Assembly (NCBI GenBank): GCA_001770285.1 | Contig: MEQQ01000066.1 | Coordinates: 15,058-68,089 of the forward strand | Direction: 5' to 3' | Length of the DNA: 53,032 nt | Source of the DNA: Betaproteobacteria bacterium RBG_16_66_20 | GTDB taxonomy: Bacteria; Pseudomonadota; Gammaproteobacteria; Burkholderiales; SG8-39 | In this document: piece by piece, positions 1,836 through 53,032 of the stretch | Position numbering within the stretch: the first letter of the stretch is position 1 | How the letters are laid out: each line of letters starts with the position of its first letter | Notes under the pieces: model-generated | Database searches by the model: none | The model's input: the letters and a program-made list of their open reading frames with translations, nothing else | Told to the model about the DNA's origin: nothing | Translations under genes and position numbers: made by a program

Positions 1836-1842
1836 GCTTCGC

Positions 1843-3009: not shown

Positions 3010-3015
3010 GGAGCA

Positions 3016-37234: not shown

Positions 37235-37264
37235 TTGCGCCCGGCGGCAACTACTGGATATAAT
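37235..37264 (+). promoter_or_regulatory. Probable lexA promoter
   Basis: TTGCGC - 18 nt - TATAAT (37259..37264). The -10 element lies inside SOS box 1. Confidence 0.5.
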
Positions 37265-37287
37265 GCCAGCACTGAACAAGGGCACAG
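37254..37287. promoter_or_regulatory. Two tandem LexA (SOS) boxes
   Basis: CTGGATATAATGCCAG (37254..37269) and CTGAACAAGGGCACAG (37272..37287) both fit the beta/gamma-proteobacterial CTG-N10-CAG (CTGT-N8-ACAG) operator. They sit directly upstream of the lexA RBS GGAGG. Confidence 0.75.
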
Positions 37288-37303
37288 TGGCCCGGAGGCT
37301 GCG

Positions 37304-37933
37304 ATGAGCGAACCCCTGACCGAACGCCAGACCGAGATCCTGCGCCTGATCAAGGACCTCACCGAGGTGTCGGGTTTCCCGCCGACGCGCGCCGAGATCG
37401 CCGAGCGCATGGGCTTTCGCTCCGTGAACGCGGCCGAGCAGCACCTGCGCGCGCTGGAGCGCAAAGGCGCGCTGGAAATCTCCGCCGGATCCTCGCGCGG
37501 CATCAAGATCCGCGAGCGCGGCGGCCCGCGTCACGGGCGCCTGCTCGAGCTGCCGGTGATCGGCCGGGTCGCGGCCGGAAGCCCGATCCTCGCCGAAGCG
37601 CACGTGCAGGCACGCTATCAGATCGATCCCAACCTGTTCACGCCCCGCGCCGATTACCTGCTGCGCGTGCGCGGCCTGTCGATGCGCGACGCCGGCATCC
37701 TCGAAGGCGACCTGCTCGCAGTTCACCGCACGCAGGACGCGCAGAGCGGGCAGGTGGTGGTGGCGCGCATCGGCGACGAGGTGACCGTCAAGCGCCTGCG
37801 GCGCCGCGGACACGCGGTCCAGCTGCTGTCCGAGAACCCCGATTTCAAGCCGATCGAACTCGACCTGCGTCACGACGAAATGGCGATCGAGGGCGTCGCC
37901 GTCGGCGTGATCCGCAGCGGCAAAAGTCTGTAA
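37304..37933 (+). CDS. lexA: LexA repressor
   Basis: [12 protein letters not shown] ... FPPTRAEIA (winged HTH), the Ala-Gly cleavage site VAAGSP, the catalytic Ser (GLSM) and Lys (VKRL) are present. The start is set at ATG 37304. Confidence 0.95.
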
Positions 37934-38011: not shown

Positions 38012-39805
38012 ATGAATTCCCCAAGCACCGCCGCGCCTCAGGTTTCCGCCGCCGAGAGTATCGACCTGCGCCAGTCGGCGGATCCGCGCCGCATCCTCGC
38101 CGACCGGGTCAGGCAGCTCTACAGCCAGATGCCGCTGGCGATCGTCGGCAGTTTCCTGATCAGCGCCATCGCGGCCTACGAGCTGCGCGAGGGGCGCTTT
38201 GTGGAGATCGTGGTGTTCTGGGCCGGCCTGGTGGTGCTCCTCACCCTCGCCTGCGCAGGCCTGTACTGGGGCTACCGCAAGAGCGCGCGCAAGATCGAAG
38301 AGGCCGCACAGTGGCTGCGATGGCTCGGCATCAGCGCGCTCGCGATCGGCGCGACCTGGGGTTTCGCCGGCGCGGTGTTCTTCCCTTCCCATGCCGACGA
38401 GCAGCAGGTGTTCCTCGCGCTGGTGATTTCGCTCCTGGTCGCGGCCGGCATCCCGATCTACGCGGTGTCCTGGCCGATCTACGCGGCGTACGCGGCGGGC
38501 ATCCTGTTCCCGTTCACCTATGTGCTGGCGACCTTCGGCAACAAGCTGTTCGCCGAAATCGCGCTGATCGTGCCGGCGTTCTACCTCCTCAACGTCGGCA
38601 TCGCCTACCGCCTGAACGGCGTGTTCGATTCCGGCTTCCGGCTGCGCCACGCCTACGGCAAGCTGACCGAGGACTACACCGCTCTCAACCAGCGGCTCGA
38701 GCAGCAGCTCGTCGAGCTGGAGGAGGCGCGCCGCCAGGTCGAGGCCTCCGGCAGGAAACTGGCGCTGTTCGCGGAGCGCTCGCCGATCGCGGTGTTCGAG
38801 TTCGACCCGGCAGGCCGGATCCTGAGCGCGAACCCTGCCGCCGAAACGTTGTTCGGTTTCAGTTCGCGCGAGATGGTCGGGCGTCCCGGCACCGATACCC
38901 TGTTCCCGAGCGGCGCGAAGGACGACATCCGCGCGCGCTGGCGCAGCCTGATCCAGTCGCGCGAGCCGGTATTCGGGCTGCGGCTGAGCAACACGCGCCG
39001 CGACGGCGCGGAAATCACCTGCGAGTGGAGCCTGACCCCGCTGGTCAATCCGGAGAACCTCGTCATCTCGGTGATCGTGCAGGGCCGCGACATCACGCAG
39101 CAGCTCGAGGCCGAGCGCATGAAGCAGGAATTCACCTCCACGCTGAGCCACGAACTGCGCACCCCGCTCACCTCGATCATCGGTTCGCTGCAGCTGATCA
39201 ATTCGGGCGTGCTGGGGGAGATCGAGAAGGACACGCTCGAGCTGACCACCATCGCCGAGCGCAACGGCCAGCGGCTGCTCGACCTCATCAACGACATCCT
39301 CGACGTGGAAAAGATCGAGTCCGGCAAGCTCACCCTGTTCCCCGAAGTCCTCGATCTGGGCGAGCTCGTCAACGAGTCGCTGGCCCTGAACCGGGGTTTT
39401 GCCGACGGCTTCAAGGTGCGCCTCGCCACCGCCGGCGAACTTGCACAGGTCAGGGTGAACGCGGACCGCAAGCGCCTGCTGCAGGTCATGACCAACCTGC
39501 TGTCGAACGCGGCCAAGTTCTCGCCCGAAGGCAGCGTCGTGGACGTCACCCTGGAAAATATCGACGGCGGCAAGGTGCGCGTCGGCGTGCATGATTGCGG
39601 CCCGGGTATCCCGGAGGATTTCCGCGACCGGATTTTCGGCCGCTTCGCCCAGGCCGACATGTCCTATACGCGCCAGAAGGGCGGCACCGGCCTCGGGCTT
39701 TCGATCTGCAAGCGCCTGCTCGAAATGATGGGCGGGCGGATCGGCTTTTCCGGACGCGAAGGCAGCGGCACCACCTTCTGGTTCGAGCTGCCGCAACAAG
39801 CCTGA
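38012..39805 (+). CDS. Sensor histidine kinase: multi-TM N-domain + PAS + HisKA + HATPase
   Basis: About 6 predicted TM helices are followed by a coiled-coil, a PAS domain (SPIAVFEFDPAGRILSANPAAETLFGF), the H-box STLSHELRTPLTSI, the N-box LLSNAAKFSP and the G-boxes DCGPGI / GGTGLGLSI. The 37982..40348 minus ORF is its antisense shadow. Confidence 0.85.
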   Translation: MNSPSTAAPQVSAAESIDLRQSADPRRILADRVRQLYSQMPLAIVGSFLISAIAAYELREGRFVEIVVFWAGLVVLLTLACAGLYWGYRKSARKIEEAAQWLRWLGISALAIGATWGFAGAVFFPSHADEQQVFLALVISLLVAAGIPIYAVSWPIYAAYAAGILFPFTYVLATFGNKLFAEIALIVPAFYLLNVGIAYRLNGVFDSGFRLRHAYGKLTEDYTALNQRLEQQLVELEEARRQVEASGRKLALFAERSPIAVFEFDPAGRILSANPAAETLFGFSSREMVGRPGTDTLFPSGAKDDIRARWRSLIQSREPVFGLRLSNTRRDGAEITCEWSLTPLVNPENLVISVIVQGRDITQQLEAERMKQEFTSTLSHELRTPLTSIIGSLQLINSGVLGEIEKDTLELTTIAERNGQRLLDLINDILDVEKIESGKLTLFPEVLDLGELVNESLALNRGFADGFKVRLATAGELAQVRVNADRKRLLQVMTNLLSNAAKFSPEGSVVDVTLENIDGGKVRVGVHDCGPGIPEDFRDRIFGRFAQADMSYTRQKGGTGLGLSICKRLLEMMGGRIGFSGREGSGTTFWFELPQQA

Positions 39806-39814
39806 GAGGACCCC

Positions 39815-40204
39815 ATGCCCGCGCAAGCGCTCAACCGCATCTGCTACGTAGAGGACGACGAGGACATCCAGAGGATCGTGCGCATGTCGCTCGAGCGCGT
39901 CGGCAAGATGACGGTCGAAGTGGTCGGCGATCCGTTGGTCGCGATCGACCGGATCATTGCATTCAAGCCCGATCTGGTGATGCTCGACTGGATGATGCCC
40001 GGGATGGACGGGCCGACGCTCTATCGCAAGATGCTGGAAACGCCTGAGACCAAATCGATGCCGGTGGTATTCATCACCGCCAAGGCCTCGCAACGCGAAC
40101 TCGACGAACTGCGCAAGCTGGGCGCCGCGGGCACCATCTCGAAGCCCTTTTCCCCCAAGGACCTGCCCGAGCAACTGCGCGCCATCTGGCAAGCATTGCC
40201 GTAA
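39815..40204 (+). CDS. Single-domain response regulator (CheY-like receiver)
   Basis: YVEDDEDI, the phospho-acceptor context DLVMLDWMMPGMDG, VVFITA and ISKPF are present. It lies 9 nt downstream of the kinase. Confidence 0.85.
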   Translation: MPAQALNRICYVEDDEDIQRIVRMSLERVGKMTVEVVGDPLVAIDRIIAFKPDLVMLDWMMPGMDGPTLYRKMLETPETKSMPVVFITAKASQRELDELRKLGAAGTISKPFSPKDLPEQLRAIWQALP

Positions 40205-40253
40205 GGCAACGCGCGCCAAAACCGGCTTGCCCGGAACTCGGGCCGCTGCAGGC

Positions 40254-40685
40254 TCAGCGCGCTCCGGGGTCGCTGCGGTCGGCGTTGCCTGCCGCCTGCT
40301 GCAGATGCACCGGCAGGTGCTCGCGCACGGCGGCGGCGAGCGTTTCACGCAGAATCGGCTTCACGATGTGCACGCTCGCGCCCAGCCTGCGGCAACGCTC
40401 GATCGACTCCGGATCGTCCAGCACCGAGACCACGAGCACGGGAGTGCTGCGGTTCGGCGAGCGTTCCCCGCGCAGCCACTCGAGCACGTCGAAGCCGCTT
40501 GCGTCGGGCATCAGCAGATCGAGCAGGATGATGTCGAAGCGCGTTTGCCGCATCTGGCGTTCAGCCTCGTCGGCGCCTCCGGCGAGCGTCACCTCGACCG
40601 GCAATTCCTGCGTCAGGATGCGCGCGATCAGCAGGCGCGTCGGCTCGTTGTCATCCACCACCAGGATCCGGATTTGCGCAGTCAT
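40254..40685 (-). CDS. Single-domain response regulator (receiver only)
   Basis: ILVVDDNEPTR, DIILLDLLMPDASG, VLVVSV and IVKP are present. The start is set at ATG 40685, 7 nt after the stop of the upstream FecR-domain gene. Confidence 0.8.
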   Translation of the reverse strand: MTAQIRILVVDDNEPTRLLIARILTQELPVEVTLAGGADEAERQMRQTRFDIILLDLLMPDASGFDVLEWLRGERSPNRSTPVLVVSVLDDPESIERCRRLGASVHIVKPILRETLAAAVREHLPVHLQQAAGNADRSDPGAR

Positions 40686-40692
40686 GGGATGC

Positions 40693-42195
40693 CTATCGGC
40701 CAAGCAGGGCGGCGCCGGATATGGTCTGGGCGGCCGCCTTCAAGCCGAACGATGTGATCATCCTCTGCGCCGCGCCGCCGACAAACAGGCCGTGCGCGGT
40801 GCCATTGGCGGGGACGGAGGGGGGAGGCAATCCGCCCCCCGCGCAACCGGCGCAGCTGCCGCTCAGCGAGATTCCGGAGGCGCCGCCGAACTGCGCGAAC
40901 GAACCACTGCCGCTCGCAGTCCAGTTTGCCGCGCCGATCGACGCATTCAGGTTGTAGCTGGTGATCTGCTGCGTGCCGAAATTGACGCCCGCGCTGAGCG
41001 AGTTGATCGTACCTTGCGCGCCGGCCTGGTTCGTCGGCGCAGGTCCGCCCGCGTAGTTGTACGTTGCAGTGACCAGCATCGCCGGCATCGCCGCGAGCTG
41101 CGCCGCGCTCGTCAGTTGCGTGCTGTTCATGAAATGCGTGCCTCCGTTCGTGGCGTTGCCTGCGACCGTGGCGAGGCCGCCAGTCCAGGTTCCCCAGTCC
41201 ACGCCCCAGGCGGCATCGCCGTTGCTGTTGGCGAGCGGCGCGCCATTGGTAACGATGGCGAGATTCACACCCGAGCGTGTCGCGCTGACGCCACTCACTG
41301 GATCGAATCCAACCACGCCCCCCATACCACCGCCACCCGGGACGCCACTGCCCGCGCCACTGCCGCTTCCCGCACTTCCTGCGCCGCCGCTCAGGCGGAT
41401 GCCGCTTGCGGTGACTACATCCTGCGTCACCTTCGGCTTAACGCTCTCCGCGTCCGCAGACCCGGCATCAGACGGCCGCGGCACCCCCGTACGCGACTGC
41501 GGTCCTACCGTCCTGTTGAAGAACCCGGGAATCCCGGGGAGCAGCGAAGGCATTTCGCCCGCTGAAGCCGCATAGCCAACCTGGTTGGGCGCGACCACCA
41601 CTTCACCCGCCTCGGTGCGGATGAACACCAGACCGACATTGACCTTGTTGTACACGCCCGATTGCGCGATGCCGCCGTTCGCCGGCTGGGGCGCGGAGAA
41701 GTAATACGATTCGTGATCGGTGCCGCGCACGCCCATCTGGGCGATCGGCGTCTCGATCAGGTAGTTGTCCTTGTTGCTCCGGCCAATGGCACCGGTAACA
41801 GCCCGAAAGCCGCCCTGCTCGAGCCGGTAGCGGACCCGCTCGGATCCGTCCTCGCGCCCGTCATAGCGGAACTCGACTACGGTAACGCGCGTTCCGGGCT
41901 GCACCACCACGACTGCCCCGTCGCCCATCTTGATCTGCGCAGTGCCCGATTTTTCGCTCAGCACCGTCTCGCCCACGGAAAGCGGCGTGCCCTTGCGCGC
42001 CGGCTTGCCTGCGCCGTTGGCGGACTGGACCTGCACCTCCCCCACAACGAACTGGAACACGCCGGCCACGGTGCCAAGCGCAACAGCCGGCCATCCCGCG
42101 ACGCAGGCGACCAGCAGCGCTCGAACTGTCGTTGCAATCAGATTCACCGCCCGGCACCTTTCCACCCTGACCAGCAAGCCGAAACGACTATACAT
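40693..42195 (-). CDS. Exported FecR-domain protein with Gly-rich linker and C-terminal TbpB/fHbp-like small beta-barrel domain
   Basis: The N-terminal hydrophobic segment is TTVRALLVACVAGWPAVALG. This could be a lipobox (LVAC) or an SPase I site (ALG/T). The FecR-type region is FVVGEVQVQSANG...PARKGTPLSVGETVLSEKSGTAQIKMGDGAVVVVQPGTRV. A linker GGAGSAGSGSGAGSGVPGGGGMGG follows. The C-terminus is ATYNYAGG...GTINSLSAGVNFGTQQITSYNLNAS...WTASGSGSF...GTAHGLFVGGAAQRMITSFGL. The start is uncertain (ATG 42195, GTG 42228 or GTG 42147). Confidence 0.7.
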   Translation of the reverse strand: MYSRFGLLVRVERCRAVNLIATTVRALLVACVAGWPAVALGTVAGVFQFVVGEVQVQSANGAGKPARKGTPLSVGETVLSEKSGTAQIKMGDGAVVVVQPGTRVTVVEFRYDGREDGSERVRYRLEQGGFRAVTGAIGRSNKDNYLIETPIAQMGVRGTDHESYYFSAPQPANGGIAQSGVYNKVNVGLVFIRTEAGEVVVAPNQVGYAASAGEMPSLLPGIPGFFNRTVGPQSRTGVPRPSDAGSADAESVKPKVTQDVVTASGIRLSGGAGSAGSGSGAGSGVPGGGGMGGVVGFDPVSGVSATRSGVNLAIVTNGAPLANSNGDAAWGVDWGTWTGGLATVAGNATNGGTHFMNSTQLTSAAQLAAMPAMLVTATYNYAGGPAPTNQAGAQGTINSLSAGVNFGTQQITSYNLNASIGAANWTASGSGSFAQFGGASGISLSGSCAGCAGGGLPPPSVPANGTAHGLFVGGAAQRMITSFGLKAAAQTISGAALLGR

Positions 42196-42265
42196 CCTTA
42201 CAGTAGACCTTAGCACCGCCCGCGGCACGGACCGAATGCGCGATTCTTGCCTTTTTTGACATTGA

Positions 42266-43648
42266 TTACCTGAAATCGTGCCGCAGGGTAATCCCGAAAT
42301 CGTGTCGGGTGTAGGCGTAGATCGGAATGTTAGACCCCTGGCGGGTCGAGCGCACCGCCAGCCGCAGGCGCAGATCAGCGATCAGCTGGTACTGCAGTGC
42401 GATTTCCAGGTCTTCGCGCCGGTCGTGGCGCGTGACCAGGAAGGCGGGATCCGCGCGCCGGTACGCCGCGTCCTGCAAGCCCGCGCTGGCCTGCAGCGAG
42501 AGCCGCCCGGCGAGCGCCTGCTCCACCCCGAGCAGCAGGCCCCATAGCCGCCGGTCGCCGCCGGGATTGCCGCCAACGTCATGTTCCCGTCCCGCCGAGA
42601 GGTTGCCGTAGAGCGCGGCCCCCGAATCCCAGCCGCGCCGCGCACCGACGCCGGCGGAGGCGAAATCGGCGTCGAAGACGCGTTGCTCGGCAGGGAGGTG
42701 CCGGAAACGCCCCGCCTGCGCAAACCCGGACCATCGGCTGCCATCCCCCGGGACTTCGCTGACCTCCAGCGCGAGCGCGCTCACGTCGCGGCTCGCCCGG
42801 CGATCGAGATAGGAGCGCGCCGACAGCAGCTGCGCGCGCGCGAAAAACCGGTCCCAGATCCGGGCCACCCCGATCCGTGCCGCGCCAGCGTCGATATCGA
42901 ACTGCGATTCGCGTGCGTTGCGCCGCTGGATCGCGTCGACGCCGCCAATCAGCGCATGGCGCTGGTCGATCTGGTGCGTGACGTCGATGCCCGCGCTCAA
43001 CCCGGCATAGCTGTCCGCCCGGCGCAGGTTGCGGCCCGCAAGATCGACTTCGGCTCCGAACAGCGGCACGAAGATGCGCGCCTGCGCGGCTGCGGCATTC
43101 ACATTCGAGTCGCGGCCGGCGCTTGCGGCCACGAAGCCGCTGATGAAGGTGCGCCGCTCGCCCGCGCCGCCGGCCTGCACCAGATAGGCCGCCAGCCGGT
43201 CGCGCACTGCCGCGGGCGGATCCAGAGCGAGCAGGCCCTCGAACACGATGCGCGCCTGCTCGCGGTTGCCGAGCGCGAGATACGCGCGACCCATGTCGAT
43301 CGAAGCGCCGGCATGCGTTGGATCCGACGCAAGCACCCGGGTAAACGCCAGCGTCGCGCGATCCGGCCTTCCGGATTCGAGCGCGGCGCGGCCAAGGGCG
43401 TAGTCGAAATCGATCTCGCCGATGTAATCATCTTCCTTCGCGGCGAGCGCACGGTAGGCCTCGTCCGCCTTGCCCGCCGCGCTCAGGATGCGTGCCTGCT
43501 CGAGCAGCCCCGCCCGCGCCTCGGACCCCGCGGCCTGCGCCTGCGCCGCGCCCGGCGCGGCCGCGAATGCCGCCACAAGCAACGCGCACGCGAAGGCGCG
43601 TCCGAGCGCCGCGCTACGCCGTTCCTCTAGAATGCACCGGCCCCCCAT
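42266..43648 (-). CDS. Outer-membrane protein: signal peptide + TPR domain + C-terminal beta-barrel, Slam/DUF560-like (probable)
   Basis: The signal peptide is AFACALLVAAFAAAPGAAQA. The TPR-like segment is DFDYALGRAALESGRPDRATLAFTRVLASDPTHAGASIDMGRAYLALGNREQARIVFEGLLALDPPAAVRDRLAAYL. About 290 aa of alternating-polarity strands follow (GRDSNVNAA ... LEIALQYQL ... LRLAVRSTRQGSNIPIYAYTRHDFGITLRHDF). Size and layout match surface-lipoprotein-assembly-modifier proteins as I remember them. Confidence 0.6.
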   Translation of the reverse strand: MGGRCILEERRSAALGRAFACALLVAAFAAAPGAAQAQAAGSEARAGLLEQARILSAAGKADEAYRALAAKEDDYIGEIDFDYALGRAALESGRPDRATLAFTRVLASDPTHAGASIDMGRAYLALGNREQARIVFEGLLALDPPAAVRDRLAAYLVQAGGAGERRTFISGFVAASAGRDSNVNAAAAQARIFVPLFGAEVDLAGRNLRRADSYAGLSAGIDVTHQIDQRHALIGGVDAIQRRNARESQFDIDAGAARIGVARIWDRFFARAQLLSARSYLDRRASRDVSALALEVSEVPGDGSRWSGFAQAGRFRHLPAEQRVFDADFASAGVGARRGWDSGAALYGNLSAGREHDVGGNPGGDRRLWGLLLGVEQALAGRLSLQASAGLQDAAYRRADPAFLVTRHDRREDLEIALQYQLIADLRLRLAVRSTRQGSNIPIYAYTRHDFGITLRHDFR

Positions 43649-43667
43649 AAGCGGGATTATCCACGCG

Positions 43668-46370
43668 ATGTCTGCCCCGATGCCGATTCGCCTCTTGACA
43701 GTGCTGGCGCTCGCACTCGGCTTCGCCTCCCTGTGCTCGCAGACGGCCCTCTATTCCAGGTTCCAGGGATGGCTTGAGGACGCGCAGCAGCGCCTGTTTG
43801 CCGAGCCGCTCGCGTTCGAGCATGCCGTCGTGTTCGACGTCGACGAGGAATCCATGCAGCGCCTCGAGGGACGGGTGGGCGCTTGGCCCTACCCGCGCGA
43901 TGTCTATGCGCGCACGGCGCGCTTTCTCGCCGCGCAGGGCGCGCGCGCGATCGCCTACGATATCCTGTTTTCCGAGGCGCGTCCGGGCGATGACGACTTC
44001 GCGCGAGTGCTTGACGCGCGCAGCGTCCTTGCCGCCGCGGCGCTGCCCTACACGCTGCGGCGCACCGCGGCGTACCAGGAGCAACTCGGCGGGCTCGCAC
44101 TGCCCCTCGATGGCGCGCCTGCACGGATCTGGCCCGACTTGACGCTGCCGCAGCCGCGCCTCACCTTGAACTCGGGTGCGCGGGCCGGTGCCATCAGCGC
44201 GCCCGCCGATGACGACGGCACGGTACGCAGGATTCACGTTCTGCACCAGGCCTATGGACGTGTTCTGCCGAGCCTGGCACTGGGCGCGCTGCTCGCGGCC
44301 GCGCCCGGCTCGCCGCTCGCATACGACGCCGGATCGCTGCGCCTCGGCGAGCGCGCCTGGCCTCTCGGCGCCGACGGCTCGGTCGTCCTGCGATTCCCGT
44401 CCAACGCCGCGGCGCTGCCCGTGGTCCCGTTTCACCAGCTGCACGAGGCCGCGGCTGGCGCGCCGGGAACGCTTCATATCGGCGACCTGGTGAACGGAAA
44501 GATCGTCTTCATCGGCAGCTCGAGCGCGATCCTGGGCGATTATGTGTTCACGCCCATCGGCCAGCTCTCCGGCTTGAAGTTCAGCGCCCTCGCGAGCGAA
44601 CTGCTGCTCGAAGGCCGCGTCCTGCGTCCTGCGCGCCTCGCCGTCGACGCCCTGCTGGCCGCGCTCGCGCTGCTGCTGCCGGCGCTCCTCGCGTATCGCG
44701 GCCCGCGGGCCCGGCCGCGCGAGTTCGCAATCGGTTTCGCGCTTGTGCTGCTCGCCGCGGCCGGGGCGGGCGGCGCGCTGTTCGCCGCCGGCCAGCAATC
44801 GCGCTGGCTGTTCGCGGCGCTCGCCGGCAGTTCGGCGCAGGCGATCGCACTGTGCGCCTGGCTGCTCGCTCTTTACCGCGAGCGCGAACGCCTTTACTAC
44901 GAGAAGCTCGCCGCCGAGCAGGCCAACCGGATGAAAACCGCGTTCCTGAACCGCATGACCCACGAGTTGCGCACGCCGCTCACCGCGATCACGGGTTTCA
45001 ACAAGATCAACCAGCTGAGCGACGATCTCGGACGCGCGCAGCGCGTGCACAACAGCGCGATCATTGCACGCAACTGCGAACACCTGCTGTCGCTGATCAA
45101 CGATCATCTGGACACCGCGCGTATCGCCGCGGGCCAGCTCCGCATAGAGCCGAGGGCGGTGGACCCGACTGCGCTGCTCGAGGACGTCGTTACGACGATG
45201 CGGGTCATGGCCGACGCGAAGGGCCTGCAGCTGTCGCTCCGTTTCGCACAGCCGCTGCCGGCCGCGATCCGCCTGGACCCGCTGCGCCTGCGGCAGATCC
45301 TGCTCAATCTGCTGGGCAACGCCGTCAAGTTCACCGCCCGCGGGTCGGTGGAGGTCGAGGCGTCCTGGGAACCGCAGCTTCTCCGGTTCTCCGTGCGCGA
45401 TACGGGCCCGGGCATACCCGCGGATTCGCTGGCGCGCGTGTTCGATCCCTTCGAGCGTGACGCCGGCGCCAAGGAGCCCGGAACCGGCTTGGGCCTGTCG
45501 GTCACGCGCGAACTGGTGCGCCTGATGCAGGGCACCATCTCGGTTACGTCGAGTCCCGGCGCAGGAACGCGGTTCTCGGTCAGCGTGTCCGCAACCGAAG
45601 AGAAGGCGGCCGTCGCGGCTGCCGTTGCGGCCGCCCCGGTGCCGCCGGCCCGGCCTCTCGTCGGCCGGGTCCTGGTCGCTGACGACAACCGGGACTTGCG
45701 CGAGCTCTTGCTGTTCCAGCTCGGCGAGCTGGGTCTGGAATGCGCCGCTGTTGCCGACGGTTTCGAAGCGGTCGAAGCTGCGACGCGGGGCGGCTTCGAC
45801 CTCGTCCTGCTCGACATGGAAATGCCGCGCATGAACGGCTGGGAAGCCGCGCACGTGCTGCGCGCGCGAGGCTTCGATCGCCCGGTCGTCGCCCTCACGG
45901 CGCACGAGACCGCGGGCGAGGCCGAGCGCGCGCTGAGCGAGGGCTGCGACCGGATCCTGCGCAAGCCCTGCAGCATCGAATCCTTGCATGCCGCGCTCGG
46001 GCCGCTGCTCGAGGGGGCCGCTCCGCTGGCGCCGCCGCAGGCCCGCCCCGCGACGTCGCGCGCCACCGGCACCGATCGCGCGGTGGTCCAGGTCGATCCC
46101 CGGATCGCCGACCTGGCGGAGAAATTCGTGGAAAGCGCGCGCCGCGACACCGCGCGGGCGCGACTGGCGCTCGACGCACGCGACCTGGACCAGGTCCGGC
46201 TGATCGGCCACACGCTGCGGGGCAGCGCAAGCTCCTACGGCTTCGACGCGGTCGCCCGGCTCGGAGGACTGCTCGAGCACGCGGCGCGCAACGAGGACGT
46301 CGATTCGGCCGACCGCGTCACCACGCGGCTCGCCGACTACCTCGCCCGCGTCGAGATCCGATTCGGCTGA
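43668..46370 (+). CDS. CHASE2-domain hybrid sensor histidine kinase (CHASE2 - 3 TM - HisKA - HATPase - REC - Hpt)
   Basis: There is an N-terminal TM and the CHASE2 signature region VVFDVDEESMQRLEGRVGAWPYPRDVYARTARFLAAQGARAIAYDILFSE. Three TM helices follow, then the H-box MTHELRTPLTAITGF, GTGLGLSVTRELV, a receiver (VLVADDNRDL ... DLVLLDMEMPRMNG ... VVALTAH) and an Hpt (IGHTLRGSASSYGFDAV). The start is set at ATG 43668. The 43614..46280 minus ORF is an antisense shadow. Confidence 0.85.
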   Translation: MSAPMPIRLLTVLALALGFASLCSQTALYSRFQGWLEDAQQRLFAEPLAFEHAVVFDVDEESMQRLEGRVGAWPYPRDVYARTARFLAAQGARAIAYDILFSEARPGDDDFARVLDARSVLAAAALPYTLRRTAAYQEQLGGLALPLDGAPARIWPDLTLPQPRLTLNSGARAGAISAPADDDGTVRRIHVLHQAYGRVLPSLALGALLAAAPGSPLAYDAGSLRLGERAWPLGADGSVVLRFPSNAAALPVVPFHQLHEAAAGAPGTLHIGDLVNGKIVFIGSSSAILGDYVFTPIGQLSGLKFSALASELLLEGRVLRPARLAVDALLAALALLLPALLAYRGPRARPREFAIGFALVLLAAAGAGGALFAAGQQSRWLFAALAGSSAQAIALCAWLLALYRERERLYYEKLAAEQANRMKTAFLNRMTHELRTPLTAITGFNKINQLSDDLGRAQRVHNSAIIARNCEHLLSLINDHLDTARIAAGQLRIEPRAVDPTALLEDVVTTMRVMADAKGLQLSLRFAQPLPAAIRLDPLRLRQILLNLLGNAVKFTARGSVEVEASWEPQLLRFSVRDTGPGIPADSLARVFDPFERDAGAKEPGTGLGLSVTRELVRLMQGTISVTSSPGAGTRFSVSVSATEEKAAVAAAVAAAPVPPARPLVGRVLVADDNRDLRELLLFQLGELGLECAAVADGFEAVEAATRGGFDLVLLDMEMPRMNGWEAAHVLRARGFDRPVVALTAHETAGEAERALSEGCDRILRKPCSIESLHAALGPLLEGAAPLAPPQARPATSRATGTDRAVVQVDPRIADLAEKFVESARRDTARARLALDARDLDQVRLIGHTLRGSASSYGFDAVARLGGLLEHAARNEDVDSADRVTTRLADYLARVEIRFG

Positions 46371-46378
46371 GGCCGGCC

Positions 46379-47644
46379 CTAGAGCTTGACCGTGGTCTCG
46401 GCGCGGTAGGCGCCGGTTCCCTGGTAGTACTTGCGCGACAGGAAGCCGATCACCTCGTCGGCGTTCCTGAAGCGCGCATCGCGGTCTTTCTCCACCAGCT
46501 TGTCCATCAGGCGCTGGTACGGGGCGAGGTACTCCGGCAGGTCCGGCGGCTGCGTGTTCAGGTGGTGCAGCGCGACCTCCACCGCGGTCTCGCCGTCGAA
46601 CAGGTGCGTTCCGGTGAGCATCTGGAACAGCAGCACGCCGGCGCTGTAGATGTCGGTGCGCAGGTCGAGCGCTGCGCCCCGCACCTGCTCCGGGCTCATG
46701 TAGCGCGGCGTGCCGAGGATCTCGCCGTGCCCGGTGCGGTCGATCGAATCGACGTGCTTGGCGATGCCGAAATCCAGGATCGCGAGGCTGCCGTCGGAGC
46801 GGAACATCAGGTTCTGCGGCTTGAGGTCCCGGTGCAGGATGCCCTGCTCGTGGATGTCGCCCAGGGCGAACATCAGTTCGCGGAAGATCTGCAGCGATTC
46901 ATCGGGCGGCAGCGGCCTGCCGCCGAGCCGCTTGTTCAGGTCGCCGCCATCGAAGAACTCCATCACCAGGTAGGCATGCTCGCCGGAGACGCCGTGGCTG
47001 TGGATGCGCGCCACGTGCCGGCTGCGGATCCGTTCGACCAGGTTGTACTCCTCGATGAAGCGCCCGAGGGCGGTCTTGTCCGAGGTCACCTCGCTCCGCA
47101 GGATCTTCACCACCAGCGGCTCGTCGTCGCCCTCGCGCGACGCGAGGTAGACGCGCGACATGCCGCCCTCGCCGATCAGGTGCAGCACCTTGATTCCCGG
47201 GATCCGGATGCTCGCGCCGAGCTGGTGGCCGGCCTGGCGCGCCGCGTCCTCCGGCGAAGCGGCTTTTTCGGCCACGCCGCGGGTCAGCTCGCGCACCGAG
47301 GTCGCCAGTTTCTCGCGCGTCAGTTCCTGCTTGCGCTGGTAATCGTCCGCACCCGCCTTCATGGCGCGCACCGCGATCACCTCGTTGCCCGCCCCGGTGA
47401 GGAACAGCACCGGCGGGCAATCGGCGCGCTTCTTGAACTGCTGCAGCCACTCCAGGCCGTCGCCGCGCCCCAGCATGTAATCGAGGATCACCACGTCGTA
47501 GGCGCCGAGCGGGAACGAGGCGTCGGGCATGTCGCGCTCGAGCGGGTCGAACTGCTCGACCTGCAGCTCCGGCCATTCCTGCTTCAGGTGATGCGCGAGG
47601 ATGTTCCGCAGATCCTCGTCGTCGTCGATGATCAGGACTTTCAC
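46379..47644 (-). CDS. Response-regulator receiver fused to a Hanks-type Ser/Thr protein kinase
   Basis: The REC domain shows VLIIDDDEDL, VVILDYMLGRGDG, VLFLTGAG and ADDYQRK. The kinase shows the G-loop IGEGGMSRVY, VVKIL, HRDLKPQNLMF, DFGIAK and GTPRYMSPEQ. Confidence 0.85.
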   Translation of the reverse strand: MKVLIIDDDEDLRNILAHHLKQEWPELQVEQFDPLERDMPDASFPLGAYDVVILDYMLGRGDGLEWLQQFKKRADCPPVLFLTGAGNEVIAVRAMKAGADDYQRKQELTREKLATSVRELTRGVAEKAASPEDAARQAGHQLGASIRIPGIKVLHLIGEGGMSRVYLASREGDDEPLVVKILRSEVTSDKTALGRFIEEYNLVERIRSRHVARIHSHGVSGEHAYLVMEFFDGGDLNKRLGGRPLPPDESLQIFRELMFALGDIHEQGILHRDLKPQNLMFRSDGSLAILDFGIAKHVDSIDRTGHGEILGTPRYMSPEQVRGAALDLRTDIYSAGVLLFQMLTGTHLFDGETAVEVALHHLNTQPPDLPEYLAPYQRLMDKLVEKDRDARFRNADEVIGFLSRKYYQGTGAYRAETTVKL

Positions 47645-47661
47645 GCCCCGCCCCCTTCCCC

Positions 47662-48798
47662 TTACGCCGCCACGCGCAATGCCACCACTTCGAGCGGCTC
47701 GGCTTTCCCTTTCAAGGCCACCGCGCGCCGCTCGACCGCCGTCGCGCCCCCGAGCATCGCGTGCAGCGACAACGCGGCGCGCGGCCCGATCAGGATCTCG
47801 TTCGCCGCCGCGGTCTGCATCAGGCGCGCCGCGACGTTCACCGGATCGCCGATGATGGTGTAGCTCATGAAACTGGGCGCGCCGACGTTGCCGACCACCA
47901 CTTCGCCGGACTCGATCCCGATCCCGATACCGGTGGCAAGGCCGTGCTCGGCCCTCCAGCGCGCCGCCACCGGCGCGAAGCGCTCGATCATCGCGCGCGC
48001 GGTCCTGACTGCGCGCGCAGTGGCATCGGGCTGCTGCACCGGCACGTTGAATCCGACCAGCAGGCTGTCGCCCGCCATGCTGAACACGGTCCCCTCGTTG
48101 TCATGCACTGCCGCAGTCAATTCGGTGAAAAACTCATTCAACATCGGCACGATATTCGACACCGGCACGGCCTCCGAGAGGTGCGTGAAACCGCGCAGGT
48201 CGGCGAACAGCGCCACCACCGCGGTGCGCTCGGAGAGGTTGCGGAACACGGCCTCGCCGTCCGGGCTTTCGCGCAGCACGCGTTCGGCGAGGCGCGGCGA
48301 CAGGTAGCGCGAAAAGGCCTTGCGGATCGCCTCCTTGGCCTGCACCTCGGCGGCGAGCCGCCGGCCTTCCAGTTCCTTGCGGGTTTCGTGCAGGCGGCGC
48401 AGCGTCTTGACGCGCGCCAGCAGTTCCTCGCGCTGCACCGGCTTGGAGAGGAAATCGTCGGCGCCGGCCTCGATGCCGCGCACGCGGCTCTCGTGGTCCT
48501 CGAGCGCGGTGATCAGCACCACCGGCAGGAGCGCCGTCGAGTCCTCGCTCTTCAACCGGCGGCAGATGTCGAAGCCGCTCGGGCCGGGCATCTGCACATC
48601 GAGCAGCACCAGGTCGGGCGGCGCGGCCGCGATCATCTCCAGCGCGACATGGCCGTCGGCGGCGATGTCCGCGTGCATGCCCTGCTGCGCGAGCAGCAGG
48701 GCGAGGAACCCCGCCATGTCCGGATCGTCGTCGACCACCAGGACGCGGAACGCGGCCTGTGCGGCGTGCGCCACGCGCCCGGAGGCGAGCTCACTCAT
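47662..48798 (-). CDS. Response-regulator receiver fused to a class III nucleotidyl (adenylate/guanylate) cyclase domain
   Basis: The REC domain shows VLVVDDDPDM, LVLLDVQMPGPSG, VVLITAL and DDFLSKP. The cyclase shows VVALFADLRGFT, MAGDSLLVGF and IIGDPVNVAARL. The start at ATG 48798 overlaps the Hpt gene stop (ATGAGTGA). Confidence 0.85.
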   Translation of the reverse strand: MSELASGRVAHAAQAAFRVLVVDDDPDMAGFLALLLAQQGMHADIAADGHVALEMIAAAPPDLVLLDVQMPGPSGFDICRRLKSEDSTALLPVVLITALEDHESRVRGIEAGADDFLSKPVQREELLARVKTLRRLHETRKELEGRRLAAEVQAKEAIRKAFSRYLSPRLAERVLRESPDGEAVFRNLSERTAVVALFADLRGFTHLSEAVPVSNIVPMLNEFFTELTAAVHDNEGTVFSMAGDSLLVGFNVPVQQPDATARAVRTARAMIERFAPVAARWRAEHGLATGIGIGIESGEVVVGNVGAPSFMSYTIIGDPVNVAARLMQTAAANEILIGPRAALSLHAMLGGATAVERRAVALKGKAEPLEVVALRVAA

Positions 48799-49096
48799 AG
48801 ACGATCTGCACCCGCGCGAGGTAGTCGGCGTATTCGGCGATGCGCGCCTCGAGCCCGGCGCGGTCGCCGGCCTTCGCGCCGTCCTCGATCTGCTTGCCGA
48901 GCGTCGACACCAGCTCGAAACCGTAGGAGTTGCCCACACCCTTCATGCGGTGGCCGAGCTGGCGCAGCTGCTCCATGTTGCCCGCGGCAAGCGCCGCGCG
49001 CAGCGCTTCGACTTCCTTGGAGCGGTTTTTCATGAACGTCGGGATCAGGTCCTCGAGGTCCTTGGCAACGGTGACGGCAATCGGTTGGGCGGTCAT
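48791..49096 (-). CDS. Stand-alone histidine phosphotransfer (Hpt) protein
   Basis: The 101-aa helical protein has the Hpt signature LRQLGHRMKGVGNSYGFELV. Confidence 0.8.
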   Translation of the reverse strand: MTAQPIAVTVAKDLEDLIPTFMKNRSKEVEALRAALAAGNMEQLRQLGHRMKGVGNSYGFELVSTLGKQIEDGAKAGDRAGLEARIAEYADYLARVQIVYE

Positions 49097-49149: not shown

Positions 49150-52107
49150 TCAGTGAAAGTCCCGCGAGCGCAGCCTGAGGCCGCCGGGCGAGCCTCCCTG
49201 CAGGCGTACGAGGAGCCGGCTGTGGTCCTCCAGCCGCCGCGCGATCAGGTGCACCACCCGGCCCTCCCGCTCGATCACCCCCTCCACCCCCAGCAGGCGC
49301 GCGCCGAGCAATTCCCGGCGCTGGCGCTCGAGCAGGCTGCGCCAGACCACCACGTTGACGCAGCCGCTCTCGTCCTCGAGCGTCACGAACACCACCCCGC
49401 TCGCGGTATCCGGCCGCTGCCGGCAGGTGACCAGCCCGGCAGCGCGCGCGAGGCTGCCATGCGGAAGCAAACAGAGGTTTTCTGCTTTTACTATCTTTAG
49501 TTTTCCCAGGTGATTTCTCAAAAGAGCGAGCGGATGTCTTCCCAGCGTGAAACCAAGGCTCCGGTAGTCGGCCACGATCTCCTCGCCTTCGGCAGGGGGC
49601 TCGAATTCAGGTTGGTTTTTCGTTCTTGTATCTGAAGACAAAAAGGCAGTTCCTTTCTCAACCCCGGACGCGGCCCAATGCGCGCTCCTGCGATGCCCCG
49701 CCAGGGACTGCAGCGCGCCCGCCGCAGCCAGGCAGTTCAGGTCCCTGCGGTTCAGGCCGGCGCGCTGCGCGAGATCCGCGACCGAAGCGCAGGGCCTGCT
49801 CGCCACGATCCGCTCCCCCGCAGCGGCGGCAAGGCCACCCACCATGCGCAAACCCAGGCGTACTGCGCCGTCCTCGAGCGTGCAGTCCCACTGGCTGAGC
49901 GCCGCGTCCGCCGGCCTGACTTCGACGCCGTGCCGCCGCGCATCCTGGACCAGTTGCGAAGGGCTGTAGAACCCCATCGGCTGGCTGTTGAGCAGCGCAG
50001 CGAGGAACGCCGCCGGATGGTGGCGCTTGAGCCAGGCCGAGGCGTAGACCAGCAGCGCGAAGCTCGCCGAGTGCGACTCGGGAAAGCCGTAGTCGCCGAA
50101 CCCCAGGATCTGGCGGTAGACCGCGTCGGCGAATGCCGGCGCATAGCCGTTCCTGCGCATCCCGCCTTTCAGTTTCTCCTCGAAAGGCTCGAGGCCGCCC
50201 TTCTTCTTCCATGCCGCCATCGAACGGCGCAGCTGGTCCGCCTCGCCGGGCGAGAAACCGGCGGCGACCATGGCGAGCTGCATCACCTGCTCCTGGAAGA
50301 TCGGTATGCCGAGCGTGCGCGCGAGCACGCTCTTCACCGCCCCGCTCGGATAGGCCACCGGCTCCAGGCCCTGCCGGCGGCGCAGGTACGGATGCACCAT
50401 GCCGCCCTGGATCGGCCCCGGGCGCACGATCGCCACTTCGATCACCAGGTCGTAGAAATTCTCCGGCTTCAGGCGCGGCAGCATCGACATCTGCGCGCGC
50501 GATTCGATCTGGAACACCCCGACGGTGTCGGCTCGCTGGATCATCTCGTAGACGGCGGGGTCTTCGGCGGGAATGTCTTGCATTTTTTTTCCTATGAAAT
50601 TCAACCCCCGGCGAAGGGCGGACAACATTCCCAGCGCCAGCACGTCCACCTTCAGCAGGCCGAGCGATTCCAGGTCGTCCTTGTCCCACTGGATCACCGT
50701 GCGATCCGCCATCGCCGCGTTCTCGACCGGCACCAGCTCGGCGAGCGGCCCGCGCGAGATGACGAAGCCGCCCACGTGCTGTGAGAGGTGCCGGGGAAAG
50801 CCAATCAGTGTTTCAACCAGATTCAAAAATGGACTCGATGAACCAAGTACCCTGTTGAGATCGCGCATGGCGCTTTTGCGCCGGTAGCAGATCACGCTCG
50901 CGGCGAGCGCCGCGCGCTCGCGGCCGTATTTCCGGTAGAGGTACTGGATCACCTCCTCGCGCCGCTCGTGCTCGAAATCGACGTCGATGTCGGGCGGTTC
51001 GTTCCGCTCCCTGGAAATGAAGCGCTCGAACAGCATGTTCATCCGGGCGGGATCGACTTCCGTGATGCCGAGGCAGTAGCAGACCGCCGAGTTCGCCGCC
51101 GAACCCCGGCCCTGGCACAGGATGCCCCGCGAGCGCGCGAACTGCACCACGTCGTGCACCGTGAGGAAGAAAGCCTCGTAGCCGAGCTCGGCGATGAGCG
51201 CGAGCTCGCGCCCGACCAGCTCGCGCACAGGGGCGGGCGCGCCGCCCGGGAAGCGCCATTGCAGGCCCCCGGCGGCGAGCTTGCCGAGGTGCGAGGCCGG
51301 CGTCTCGCCCGCCGGCACCAGTTCCTTCGGGTACTCGTAGCGCAGCGCATCCAGCGAGAAGCGGCAGCGGTCCGCTATTTTCACTGTTTCTTTAATTAAA
51401 TCAAAAGGATACAGTTGCGCTATGCGTGCACGCAGGCGCAAATGTCTTTCGCCATTTGAAAAAAGATTTTTCCCGCAACACGCGACCGGAACCCCCAGGC
51501 GGATCGCGGTAAGCGCGTCCTGCAGGCGCCGGCGCGAGCGCAGGTGCATGTGCACGTCGCCCGCGGCCACCAGCGGCAGACCGGAATGCCTTGAAATTGC
51601 ATCCAATCGCCTTAATTTTCCCGAATCGTTCGGGCCGCAATGCAATTCCGCCGCGAGCCAGCTGCCGCCCGGGAACCGCTCCCGGATCCAGAGCGCATCG
51701 TCAAGGGATGGTCTTTCTCCCGGCACCCAGAGGAGCAGCAGACCGTCCTCCGAGTGCACTTCCAGATCCCCCCGGGAAAGCGAGTACGCCCCTTTTCGCG
51801 CGCGCCTTCGCGCCGTGGTGATCAGCGCTGCGAGCGCGCCGTAGGCCCTGCGGTCCGGCGCGAGCAGGACCAGCTTCAGGCCGTCCTGCAGCAGGAACTC
51901 GGAACCGACGACCAGCTTGAAACCTTTTTCCTTCGCCGCCACGTGGGCGCGCACGATTCCCGCGAGCGAGCATTCGTCGGTGAGCGCGAGCGCCGCGTAG
52001 CCGAGCGCCGCGGCGCGCGCCGCGAGTTCCTCCGGCTGCGAGGCGCCGCGCAGGAAGCTGAAGTTCGACAGGCAGTGCAGCTCCGCGTATTCAGGCAAAC
52101 AGGCCAT
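49150..52107 (-). CDS. dnaE2: Error-prone DNA polymerase DnaE2 (ImuC)
   Basis: The PHP N-terminus is [25 protein letters not shown]. The Pol III alpha core shows [16 protein letters not shown] and [14 protein letters not shown], and an OB-fold C-terminus follows. The start is set at ATG 52107, overlapping the imuB stop by 17 nt. Confidence 0.93.
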
Positions 52108-53032
52108 GCAGGAACCAGTCCCCTCCCGGCTGCGCGCCCCGCTCCCGGTAGATCCACGCCAGCGAGGCTTCACCGGTGCGCGCGATGAAGTAGTCGCGCC
52201 GCGCCTCGGCGCCGTCCCACCAGCCCGACTCGATGCGCTCCGGCCCCGCGAGCAGCGTGAACTCGCCCTCCCGGATGCGGCGCGGCGCCTCGAGCAGCCA
52301 CAGGGGGCGCGGACTGGGGATTTCGTTTTGTTTTTCGATTGAATTCATGTTTTTTATTCCAAGTCCAATACGACAAAAGGCAAATTCCGGGCGGTGATCT
52401 TCATGAATTCCAAGGCCGTGCACCGCCTCGTTCCCGAGCCGCGCCTGCAGGCGCTCGATCAACCGCAGCCATTCCTCTGCGCTGCCGCGCCGATCATCGA
52501 AAAGGTTCTGGTTTTGTTCCGGAATATTTTCCAGGTCCCCGGCTTCGATCCCGATCGCCTCGATCGGCGACCTGAGCGCCAGCGCACCCAGGCGCTCGCG
52601 CAGCAGGCGCGCGAAATGCTCCGCGCCGCGGCCGGGCGCGGCGAGCCCCACTTTCACTTCGGTGGCGGGCAGGCCGTCGTGCAGCAGTTCGAGGACGAAG
52701 GCCCGCACCCCGGCCTGGCGCGCGGCGAGGAAGCCTTCCATCTGCGCGAGCAGCCGCCGCGCGGCGAACAGCGCGTTTTCGGCCTGCATCACCGGCGCGG
52801 GCAATTCGAGCCGCGCCGAAAAGCGCGCCGGCGGCACGAAGAATTCACGCGCCTCGGGCGCCTGGCCGCAGGCCTGGCCGAGCTCCTCGAGCAGGCCCTG
52901 CCCGAAACGCAGCGCCACGCCCTCGCGCGGCAGGCGCATCAGCCCGCCGATGGTCCTTATCCCGAGACTGGAGAGCAATTCGAGCGCCGCCGGGGCGAGG
53001 CCGGTCACGGCGACCGGCAGCGCCTCCAGCCT
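52091..53032 (-). CDS. imuB: ImuB (Y-family polymerase-like SOS mutagenesis protein), C-terminal part; gene continues past the window end
   Basis: The frame is open to the window edge (…[44 protein letters not shown]…). It lies immediately upstream of, and overlaps, dnaE2, as in imuA-imuB-dnaE2 cassettes. Confidence 0.85.

Follow-up and report, generated by a model that had tools for sequence, protein, structure and literature searches.

The window analysed here, a 53,032-nucleotide (nt) stretch of contig MEQQ01000066.1 from Betaproteobacteria bacterium RBG_16_66_20 with a G+C content of about 67%, carries a dense group of signalling genes that an earlier note on this DNA had taken for one sensory machine around a CHASE2 histidine kinase. 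Comparison with related loci points instead to two units. Unit A is a cassette of four genes, which encode an outer-membrane protein (OMP) with a tetratricopeptide repeat (TPR) domain and a β-barrel, a FecR-domain protein predicted to be exported, a single-domain receiver (REC143) and, divergently, a CHASE2 hybrid kinase. Unit B surrounds the cassette and consists of a PAS kinase with the receiver REC129 on one side and a free Hpt protein, a receiver-cyclase (REC-cyclase) and a receiver-Ser/Thr kinase (REC-Ser/Thr kinase) on the other (Table 1). The reading to which we give somewhat more than half of our confidence is that the two units are separate and that the FecR protein, handled by an OMP of the type 11 secretion system (T11SS), would serve the CHASE2 kinase as its extracytoplasmic co-sensor; the kinase would then relay the phosphate to the co-encoded receiver.

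Conservation of the cassette and of the resident relay

To gather cassette loci, long contigs were searched for FecR protein homologues and one genome per species was scanned. The four-gene layout of the window, with the CHASE2 hybrid kinase gene divergent from the series OMP, FecR protein and receiver, is found in 22 further loci (L001-L005 and L007-L023), all of them from uncultured Betaproteobacteria/Burkholderiales. The divergent partner of the OMP gene is a CHASE2 kinase in all cassette loci, and a receiver-only gene directly follows the FecR gene in 18 of the 19 that could be evaluated. Protein identities are 51-61% for CHASE2, 36-48% for the OMP barrel, 58-71% for the FecR N-terminal domain and 38-68% for the FecR C-terminal domain. 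At least five genomic contexts are represented, with flanks that include genes for type IV pili, for acyl-CoA metabolism and of the Mla type, as well as lexA/dnaE2. The comparison of these sequences supports the conclusion that the OMP, the FecR protein, REC143 and the CHASE2 kinase form one conserved unit, which would be a self-contained cassette moving between genomic contexts. Terminal direct or inverted repeats are absent at its ends, and no integrase or transposase is found among its four genes.

The second unit is seen by itself in loci L039 and L040, which are cassette-free and present the order DnaE2, Hpt, REC-cyclase, REC-Ser/Thr kinase and, convergently, REC129, PAS kinase and LexA. 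By blastn both loci are collinear with the window on both flanks at 83-84% nucleotide identity, with breakpoints at window positions 40232 and 46379, and the 6146 extra bases of the window contain just the four genes of the cassette. A metagenome scan was carried out with the REC-Ser/Thr kinase protein, which forms more than 120 clusters at 84-95% identity and whose conservation is much broader and closer than that of the proteins of the cassette. The scan yielded 80 loci; together with L039 and L040, 50 were evaluable, with at least 1.5 kb beyond the gene. In 46 of these the gene is followed by REC129 and the PAS kinase, in two by the CHASE2 cassette and in two by something else. The order DnaE2-Hpt-(cyclase)-Ser/Thr kinase is kept in L034, L039, L040 and most of L041-L120, the REC-cyclase gene being missing in about 11 loci. 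Around the cassette, in turn, no locus outside the clade of the window has a cyclase or a Ser/Thr kinase gene within 10 kb. The presence or absence of the cassette is thus a polymorphism, for which insertion and deletion are alike possible. The cassette occupies the lexA/dnaE2 context in the window, L033, L034, L045 and L062, L006 carrying only its FecR/REC143 end, and the clade of the window shares the whole neighbourhood at 77-83% nucleotide identity.

Judged by its domains, Unit B (PAS kinase, REC129, free Hpt, REC-Ser/Thr kinase and, optionally, REC-cyclase) is predicted to be a complete His-Asp-His-Asp relay of its own, in which the phosphate would pass from the PAS kinase through REC129 and the free Hpt to the REC-cyclase and the REC-Ser/Thr kinase. 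Because 46 of the 50 loci are cassette-free and no such genes accompany the cassette elsewhere, the cyclase and the Ser/Thr kinase, together with the Hpt, are better read as outputs of the PAS-kinase/REC129 relay, and the branching of the CHASE2 phosphorelay towards both enzymes that the earlier note had proposed appears not to occur. The picture of three outputs of one kinase would be due to the cassette lying, in one clade, between the two convergent operons of Unit B. What stands of the single machine is the cassette itself, the Hpt, cyclase and Ser/Thr kinase genes being separate; likewise, of the gene co-occurrence that such a machine implied, the four genes do recur in unrelated flanks and the full adjacency is confined to one clade.

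It could still be argued that all nine genes form one machine, in which the CHASE2 kinase, via its own and the free Hpt, feeds REC143, the REC-cyclase and the REC-Ser/Thr kinase. The packing is tight, with 8 nt between the stops of the hybrid kinase and REC-Ser/Thr kinase genes, the arrangement is retained in the close relatives L034, L045 and L062, and receiver genes at the kinase 3' end in other lineages suggest that accretion of outputs may be favoured there. However, the adjacency is limited to one clade that has the whole neighbourhood in common, and so reflects synteny by descent, some 20 cassette loci elsewhere have neither a cyclase nor a Ser/Thr kinase gene within 10 kb, and each unit alone would already be a complete His-Asp-His-Asp relay. 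We therefore regard the single machine as decidedly improbable, and cross-talk between the two units, should it occur, lacks comparative support.

Additional genes adjoin both units. In six loci (L003, L007, L008, L009, L018 and L023) a further gene for a lone receiver lies about 100-500 nt past the 3' end of the CHASE2 kinase gene and converges on it, in the slot taken in the window by the REC-Ser/Thr kinase gene; in L001 this slot holds a HisKA_3/GerE (NarL-type) pair, and in L005 a separate Hpt gene replaces the fused Hpt domain. A gene with DUF3391 and HD_5 domains (HD-GYP-like, phosphodiesterase-like) is appended to Unit B in some loci. The two halves of Unit B lie each head-to-tail behind a DNA-damage gene, lexA and the dnaE2-like gene, an arrangement kept in at least 46 metagenomic loci. 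In L039 and L040 (positions 1-3450), type VI secretion genes (IcmF-related, TagF, FHA) lie upstream of the dnaE2-like gene, past two unannotated open reading frames (ORFs), a point that the window, ending at 53032, does not reach. The residues that determine ATP/GTP specificity in class III cyclases are usually Lys/Asp or Glu/Cys; in the cyclase domain of Unit B (47662-48798) a reading by eye finds Ser (FSMAGD) and Thr (SYTIIGD) at these places and the metal-binding Asp residues kept, a combination from which the nucleotide product is not callable.

The outer-membrane protein

The Slam barrel has 14 strands. The AlphaFold2 (AF2) model of the OMP (predicted local distance difference test, pLDDT, 84) shows TPR helices followed by 14 strands, that is, the architecture of a T11SS protein as far as a predicted fold can tell, and TPR_19 is matched at 2.5e-10. 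The barrel itself is divergent. The window protein has no PF04575 (SlipAM) match even at E≤10, and so does not reach the gathering score of that model, and no NCBIfam DUF560 call, its sole barrel match being BBP2_2 at 22.7 bits, below the cut-off of 23.7. Of 15 close members of the family, seven match SlipAM weakly. When 1.8 billion representatives were searched with the profile, 2066 relatives were obtained; among 66 sampled, 47 were SlipAM-positive (best 6e-15) and three matched TPR_Slam. One homologue, from Gallionella (L024:5178-7058), passes SlipAM at 6.6e-11 and 42.7 bits and aligns to the barrel profile of the window family over 296 columns (hhalign probability 99.9, E 9e-34). Transitive homology and the predicted fold thus support the OMP being a divergent member of the Slam/DUF560 (T11SS) family, and the earlier description of the protein as Slam-like is borne out through its SlipAM-positive relatives.

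Direct structural and profile comparisons are less specific. Sequence profile searches of the PDB with the OMP family, the full FecR family and the FecR C-terminal domain returned only TPR proteins, 5ix9 and noise, with neither Slam nor TbpB, and among the Foldseek matches listed for the model no Slam entry appears. Foldseek ranks BcsC (1.8e-12) and PelBC first, with OmpG and CymA as further generic barrels, and NCBIfam gives weak matches to BcsC and EpsL. The matches to BcsC, PelBC and EpsL would suit an exopolysaccharide porin of the BcsC, PelB or PgaA kind instead of a protein exporter. Nevertheless, they reflect only a generic TPR-plus-barrel architecture, polysaccharide synthesis genes are found in none of the cassette loci, and the homology to SlipAM, the 14 strands of the model and the cargo fold predicted for the adjoining gene all speak for an exporter. 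The porin was rejected on these grounds, and we leave it next to no probability.

In the family at large, the SlipAM-positive OMP of Gallionella L024 (3962-7892) is 626 aa long by an ORF call from the first possible start, and its gene is preceded by one for an IgGFc_binding-domain protein. A further protein, P0263, of 2187 aa, has a SlipAM-like barrel at its C-terminus (1895-2186) and may fuse a large passenger to an exporter barrel.

The FecR-domain protein as putative cargo

The FecR protein belongs to a family of more than 300 members of 450-500 aa, whose alignment runs from an AxA signal peptide through a highly conserved mature N-terminus, a FecR sandwich and a variable linker to a conserved C-terminal domain of 210 aa. 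In the AF2 model (pLDDT 80) this last domain forms a handle and an 8-strand barrel. Its best Foldseek match in the PDB is TbpB (5e-6), followed by hemophilin (7re4) and fHbp, each of them a T11SS cargo, and the N-terminal part of the protein matches the FecR-type anti-sigma domains 4m0h and 6ovk (PupR and BDI_1681 domains). PF01298 (TbpB_B_D) is weakly matched by five of 17 C-terminal domains of the family (best 0.0022); the window protein itself has no PF01298 match in Pfam or NCBIfam, and the sequence profile searches of the PDB with the full family and with the C-terminal domain gave no TbpB. The model nonetheless supports the handle and 8-strand barrel as the hallmark of T11SS cargo, and the TbpB-type barrel seen in the earlier note stands on the fold. 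The protein would thus have the whole anatomy of such cargo, that is, a gene next to that of the OMP, a Sec signal and, in the predicted structure, a C-terminal 8-strand barrel behind an N-terminal domain.

The mature N-terminus resembles a different kind of protein. Its first ~65 residues align to the MpIBP/LapA retention module 5ix9 with 36% identity over 63 columns and a Foldseek TM (template modelling) score of 0.79; hmmsearch to 5ix9 gives an E-value of 4.4e-4, and NCBIfam retention_LapA is matched at 4.8e-5. It is a hypothesis of this work that the N-terminal module retains the FecR protein. A lipoprotein, suggested by a lipobox-like LVAC motif, was considered and rejected, as the family alignment shows no conservation of the Cys.

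A CxGC motif (aa ~448-451; window 40780-40830, minus strand) is shared by at least 90% of the family and lies in a C-terminal barrel loop. The loop is modelled with lower confidence and could be a disulfide, metal or redox site; the resemblance of the region to the CxxCH of cytochrome c553 is not significant (E 1.1) and the His is missing. Cargo length varies, the FecR gene coding for 276 aa in L024 and for 853 aa in L035, and in L026 the matches to the N-terminal and C-terminal domains are 2.1 kb apart. A tblastn search of plasmids with the FecR N-terminal domain gave one weak match, and none in S. meliloti pSymB.

Distant SlipAM-type OMP genes are also followed immediately by a FecR-domain gene with no CHASE2 nearby (L024 and L025 of Gallionella, L035 and L037). 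Because such pairs exist without CHASE2, the exporter-cargo pair would be the older core, which a single Burkholderiales lineage would have extended by the kinase and the receiver.

The CHASE2 hybrid kinase and its receiver

The domains of the hybrid kinase are matched in Pfam at 9.5e-36 (CHASE2), 2e-10 (HisKA), 4e-29 (HATPase_c), 1e-22 (Response_reg) and 2e-12 (Hpt). The translation contains hydrophobic segments before and after CHASE2, followed by the cytoplasmic output domains, which is the topology of a CHASE2 sensor, and the motifs HELRTP, DMEMP and HTLRG. In NCBIfam the protein partially matches TorS, BarA and ArcB, with scores that fall far short of the equivalog cut-offs. With the DD...D...S...K residues of REC143 intact, the hybrid kinase and this receiver would together make up a complete phosphorelay set (HisKA, HATPase, REC, Hpt and a separate receiver), and REC143 is presumed to be the terminal phospho-acceptor.

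Comparison with known systems

In T11SS, the OMP consists of an N-terminal TPR domain of ~140 aa and a DUF560 barrel, and the cargo, which may be lipidated or soluble, of a variable effector at the N-terminus and an 8-strand barrel at the C-terminus (PMC12282271; PMC8406197). The cassette resembles the members of this family (Slam1/2 with TbpB, LbpB and fHbp; NilB-NilC; HrpB-HrpC; hemophilin secretors) in its TPR and DUF560-related barrel OMP, in the adjacent cargo gene and in a cargo whose Sec signal and variable N-terminal domain are combined with a handle and 8-strand barrel at the C-terminus; unlipidated cargo is known there too. In contrast, its OMP barrel is too divergent for Pfam SlipAM, its effector domain is a FecR-type, retention-module-like sandwich of which the text of the T11SS cargo survey makes no mention, the pair is embedded in two-component genes and its hosts are uncultured Burkholderiales of free-living habit instead of bacteria associated with animals.

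FecR and CHASE2 genes have been found together before, as the earlier note stated (PMC5192318; PMC9239204). The BiofilmReg operon of Burkholderia contains a CreB-type response regulator, a LysM/FecR protein, a CHASE2 kinase and a DUF4136 protein (PMC5192318). In this Burkholderiales operon, too, an exported FecR protein, a CHASE2 histidine kinase and a response regulator are encoded together. However, its FecR protein has LysM as a peptidoglycan anchor and no cargo barrel, a gene for an outer-membrane protein is missing, the kinase contains PAS and lacks the REC and Hpt of a hybrid, the regulator binds DNA, and all genes lie on one strand, whereas those of the cassette diverge. The cassette, without LysM, PAS or DNA-binding domains, shares with it the FecR-CHASE2 adjacency. 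In Campylobacterota, a cluster of a CHASE2 adenylate cyclase, a phosphodiesterase, a FecR-domain protein of the outer membrane and a TPR protein has been described as a probable single pathway (PMC9239204). The same four elements, CHASE2, FecR, TPR and an outer-membrane protein, meet there in one gene cluster, but they are divided otherwise among the polypeptides and the output is a cyclase; the cluster is mentioned in passing, with no analysis of T11SS or cargo.

The only known experimental precedent for a connection from the outer membrane to CHASE2 comes from S. meliloti, whose CHASE2 cyclases CyaK, CyaD1 and CyaD2 need NsrA to perceive an external protein signal (PMC7529298, PMC13001267). 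NsrA is, like the cassette OMP, an outer-membrane β-barrel encoded beside a CHASE2 protein; it differs in being one large protein (barrel at aa 600-1200) and in cAMP as output.

Two further systems bear on the FecR protein. In FecA-FecR-FecI and PupR, a FecR-fold periplasmic domain links a protein of the outer membrane with a signalling step at the inner one. The cassette protein, by contrast, has a cleavable signal peptide and neither a cytoplasmic anti-sigma domain nor a transmembrane (TM) helix, and no extracytoplasmic function (ECF) sigma factor, TonB-dependent transducer or anti-sigma FecR occurs in the cassette or in the gene list of any cassette locus. The retention module of LapA stays periplasmic and halts complete export, with a glycine-rich stretch lying in the outer-membrane pore (10.1101/198937). 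The cassette protein shows the same succession of a mature N-terminus alignable to 5ix9, a glycine-rich flexible stretch and a part of extracellular type, but LapA is a giant adhesin of a type I secretion system, held in a TolC-like (LapE) pore and released by LapG, whereas the cassette protein has 500 aa and a T11SS barrel as its candidate channel.

The searchable literature contains no description of the cassette combination and no paper on DUF560 together with FecR. Its T11SS part does not mention FecR, CHASE2 or kinases and ties no T11SS to signalling, and its CHASE2/FecR part does not mention DUF560 or TbpB-like domains.

Models of signal transfer

In the model that we favour, the T11SS OMP would recognise the TbpB-like handle-barrel of the adjacent protein and thread this cargo into or through the outer membrane, and the FecR N-terminal domain would be the extracytoplasmic partner to which CHASE2 responds in the periplasm. 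Domains of the FecR fold are established mediators of contact, across the periplasm, between proteins of the outer membrane and signalling proteins of the inner membrane. The envelope anchor of the FecR protein would here be the T11SS channel, in place of the LysM or fused barrel used elsewhere. A surface or envelope cue would shift the state or the location of the protein and thereby switch the kinase, and the phosphate would pass from the kinase His to the Asp of its own REC, to the His of its own Hpt and finally to the Asp of REC143. Since REC143 lacks an output domain, it would act through contact with another protein.

Several points weigh against this model. Known T11SS cargo is fully exported, and communication with a periplasmic CHASE2 domain would require partial or regulated export. 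Both the OMP and the cargo C-terminus fall below the respective Pfam thresholds (SlipAM and TbpB_B_D), their assignment resting on transitive homology and predicted folds. The OMP/FecR-cargo pairs with no CHASE2 nearby (L024, L035) imply that the cargo must also act independently of the kinase, and receiver genes adjoining the cassette in several lineages leave room for wider networks. Finally, every related locus comes from an uncultured organism or a metagenome.

How the cargo could reach the surface and still communicate with CHASE2 may be answered by its domain order. The succession of a retention-like module, a disordered linker and an exported-type lobe matches LapA, and for this reason we tentatively suggest, as a possibility well short of an expectation, that the FecR protein is a stalled T11SS cargo, a trans-outer-membrane tether that passes surface binding or pulling mechanically to the CHASE2 kinase in the inner membrane. 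The TbpB-like lobe with the CxGC loop would be exposed as a ligand-binding antenna, the 60-residue Gly/Ser/Pro linker would lie in the lumen of the 14-strand barrel, and the retention-module-plus-FecR domain would stay periplasmic in contact with the CHASE2 domain.

Complete export would give the protein a different role. As a periplasmic inhibitor or activator of CHASE2 whose level is set by the OMP, it would make the kinase a reporter of exporter activity or blockage, with no external ligand, in analogy to FlgM export. The FecR fold and CHASE2 are both periplasm-facing modules, and the cargo, unlipidated since its lipobox is not conserved, would be released like the hemophilins (PMC12282271). 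However, its N-terminal 65 residues resemble the very module that blocks complete export in MpIBP/LapA, and the kinase-less OMP-cargo pairs call for another explanation. A checkpoint of this kind seems to us unlikely.

Contact between FecR and CHASE2 might also be dispensable. The OMP and its cargo could be a binding, adhesion or nutrient-capture system and the CHASE2 pair could merely share or control its regulon. Known T11SS cargo comprises hemophores, metal or host-factor binders and adhesins (PMC12282271), and Gallionella and one other lineage have the OMP-FecR pair but no CHASE2 with it. Nevertheless, the only response regulator of the cassette has no DNA-binding domain, which makes direct transcriptional control unlikely; three published contexts, unrelated to each other, place FecR beside CHASE2 (PMC5192318, PMC9239204 and the NsrA work of PMC7529298); and the four genes travel together through at least five contexts. 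Mere co-regulation of neighbours is, in our estimation, quite unlikely, and the co-sensor model is kept as the preferred one.

Gene organization and flanking genes

The ORFs and gaps recomputed from the ORF calls, and the FecR, CHASE2, TPR, Hpt, Guanylate_cyc and Pkinase domains returned by the Pfam profile search, agree with the earlier description of the locus, as does its count of two kinases, five receivers and two Hpt domains when the PAS kinase and REC129 are included. Pfam E-values of the locus proteins span 1e-45 to 4e-6, and in the translations the phospho-acceptor His and Asp residues and the Ser/Thr kinase motifs HRD, DFG and GxGxxS are intact. The OMP and FecR genes are separated by 70 or 37 nt, depending on the start chosen, and the FecR and REC143 genes by 7 nt; the free Hpt gene overlaps the start of the REC-cyclase gene by 8 nt.

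Table 1. Genes, domains and units of the locus with their window coordinates
Feature	Position (nt)	Strand	Basis or remark
lexA	37235-37933	+	precedes PAS kinase gene
PAS-HisKA-HATPase kinase, 597 aa	38012-39805	+	Pfam
REC129, receiver-only, 129 aa	39815-40204	+	Pfam
REC143, single-domain receiver, 143 aa	40254-40685	-	Pfam Response_reg 6.9e-22; closes OMP-cargo operon
FecR-domain protein, predicted exported, 500 aa	40693-42195 (alternative start 42228)	-	Pfam FecR 3.8e-6
FecR protein: Sec signal peptide, AxA-type cleavage site before TVAGVFQF	N-terminus	-	family alignment
FecR protein: retention-module-like N-terminus and FecR β-sandwich, aa 42-225	41521-42072	-	Pfam, Foldseek
FecR protein: disordered Gly/Ser/Pro linker, aa 229-288	41332-41511	-	AF2 pLDDT below 40
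FecR protein: predicted handle and 8-strand barrel with conserved CxGC loop, aa 290-500	40696-41328	-	AF2
TPR and barrel OMP (putative T11SS/Slam family), 460 aa	42266-43648	-	Pfam TPR, AF2, remote homology
OMP: signal peptide, then periplasmic TPR domain, aa 34-159	43172-43549	-	Pfam TPR_19/TPR_2/TPR_16, AF2
OMP: predicted 14-strand β-barrel, aa 166-458	42275-43153	-	AF2
CHASE2-HisKA-HATPase-REC-Hpt hybrid kinase, 900 aa	43668 (ATG)-46370	+	Pfam, translation
Hybrid kinase: TM1		+	
Hybrid kinase: CHASE2	43740-44675	+	
Hybrid kinase: 3 TM		+	
Hybrid kinase: HisKA	44934-45134	+	
Hybrid kinase: HATPase	45276-45590	+	
Hybrid kinase: REC	45669-45998	+	
Hybrid kinase: Hpt	46113-46352	+	
REC-Pkinase (REC-Hanks Ser/Thr kinase)	46379-47644	-	Pfam Pkinase 1.4e-45
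REC-class III cyclase (REC-Guanylate_cyc), 378 aa	47662-48798	-	Guanylate_cyc 1.3e-17
Free Hpt, 101 aa	48791-49096	-	Pfam Hpt 3e-9
DnaE2-like polymerase	49150-52173	-	
Unit A, four-gene cassette, 6.1 kb	40233-46378	mixed	blastn collinearity breakpoints vs L039/L040
Unit B, left half: PAS kinase and REC129	38012-40204	+	downstream of lexA
Unit B, right half: Hpt, REC-cyclase, REC-Ser/Thr kinase	46379-49096	-	downstream of dnaE2-like gene

The start codons of the divergent OMP and hybrid kinase genes have 19 nt between them (43649-43667), against 18 nt in L034 and 50-103 nt in other lineages. With so short a gap, each promoter must be located within the coding sequence next to it, unless the start codons are misannotated. 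A search for sigma-70-like sites found none, the promoter and terminator scan yielded no more sites than the shuffle expectation, or fewer, and the window contains no LexA box of the E. coli type (CTGT-N8-ACAG).

Upstream of lexA, by 1 nt, lies a gene for an abasic-site-processing protein of the SRAP/YedK type (36601-37233, plus strand; Pfam 8e-70), near which a NAPRTase gene is found on the opposite strand, an arrangement common to L006, L033 and L040. The window ORF 52091-53008 has no Pfam match.

Significance for CHASE2 signalling and type 11 secretion

To our knowledge, neither a ligand nor a mode of activation has been established for CHASE2, a widespread sensor domain, since it was first described, and nine of the ten sequence clusters of T11SS proteins, especially those of soil and water bacteria, lack both a characterised member and a known cargo. 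The only known experimental lead on CHASE2 activation is the need of the S. meliloti cyclases for an outer-membrane protein. The cassette joins both questions, since a predicted exporter-cargo pair is genetically locked in it to a CHASE2 kinase, and as a compact four-gene system present in many lineages it suggests how an orphan CHASE2 family might read the cell surface. Moreover, recognizing the apparent signalling island as a cassette within an older relay changes which phosphotransfer partners come first. If the FecR protein does act as a tether, a general principle of CHASE2 activation would emerge, in which a FecR-domain partner is anchored in different layers of the envelope, through LysM on the peptidoglycan, through an outer-membrane barrel in NsrA and through the T11SS channel in the cassette, and type 11 secretion would acquire a role in signalling.

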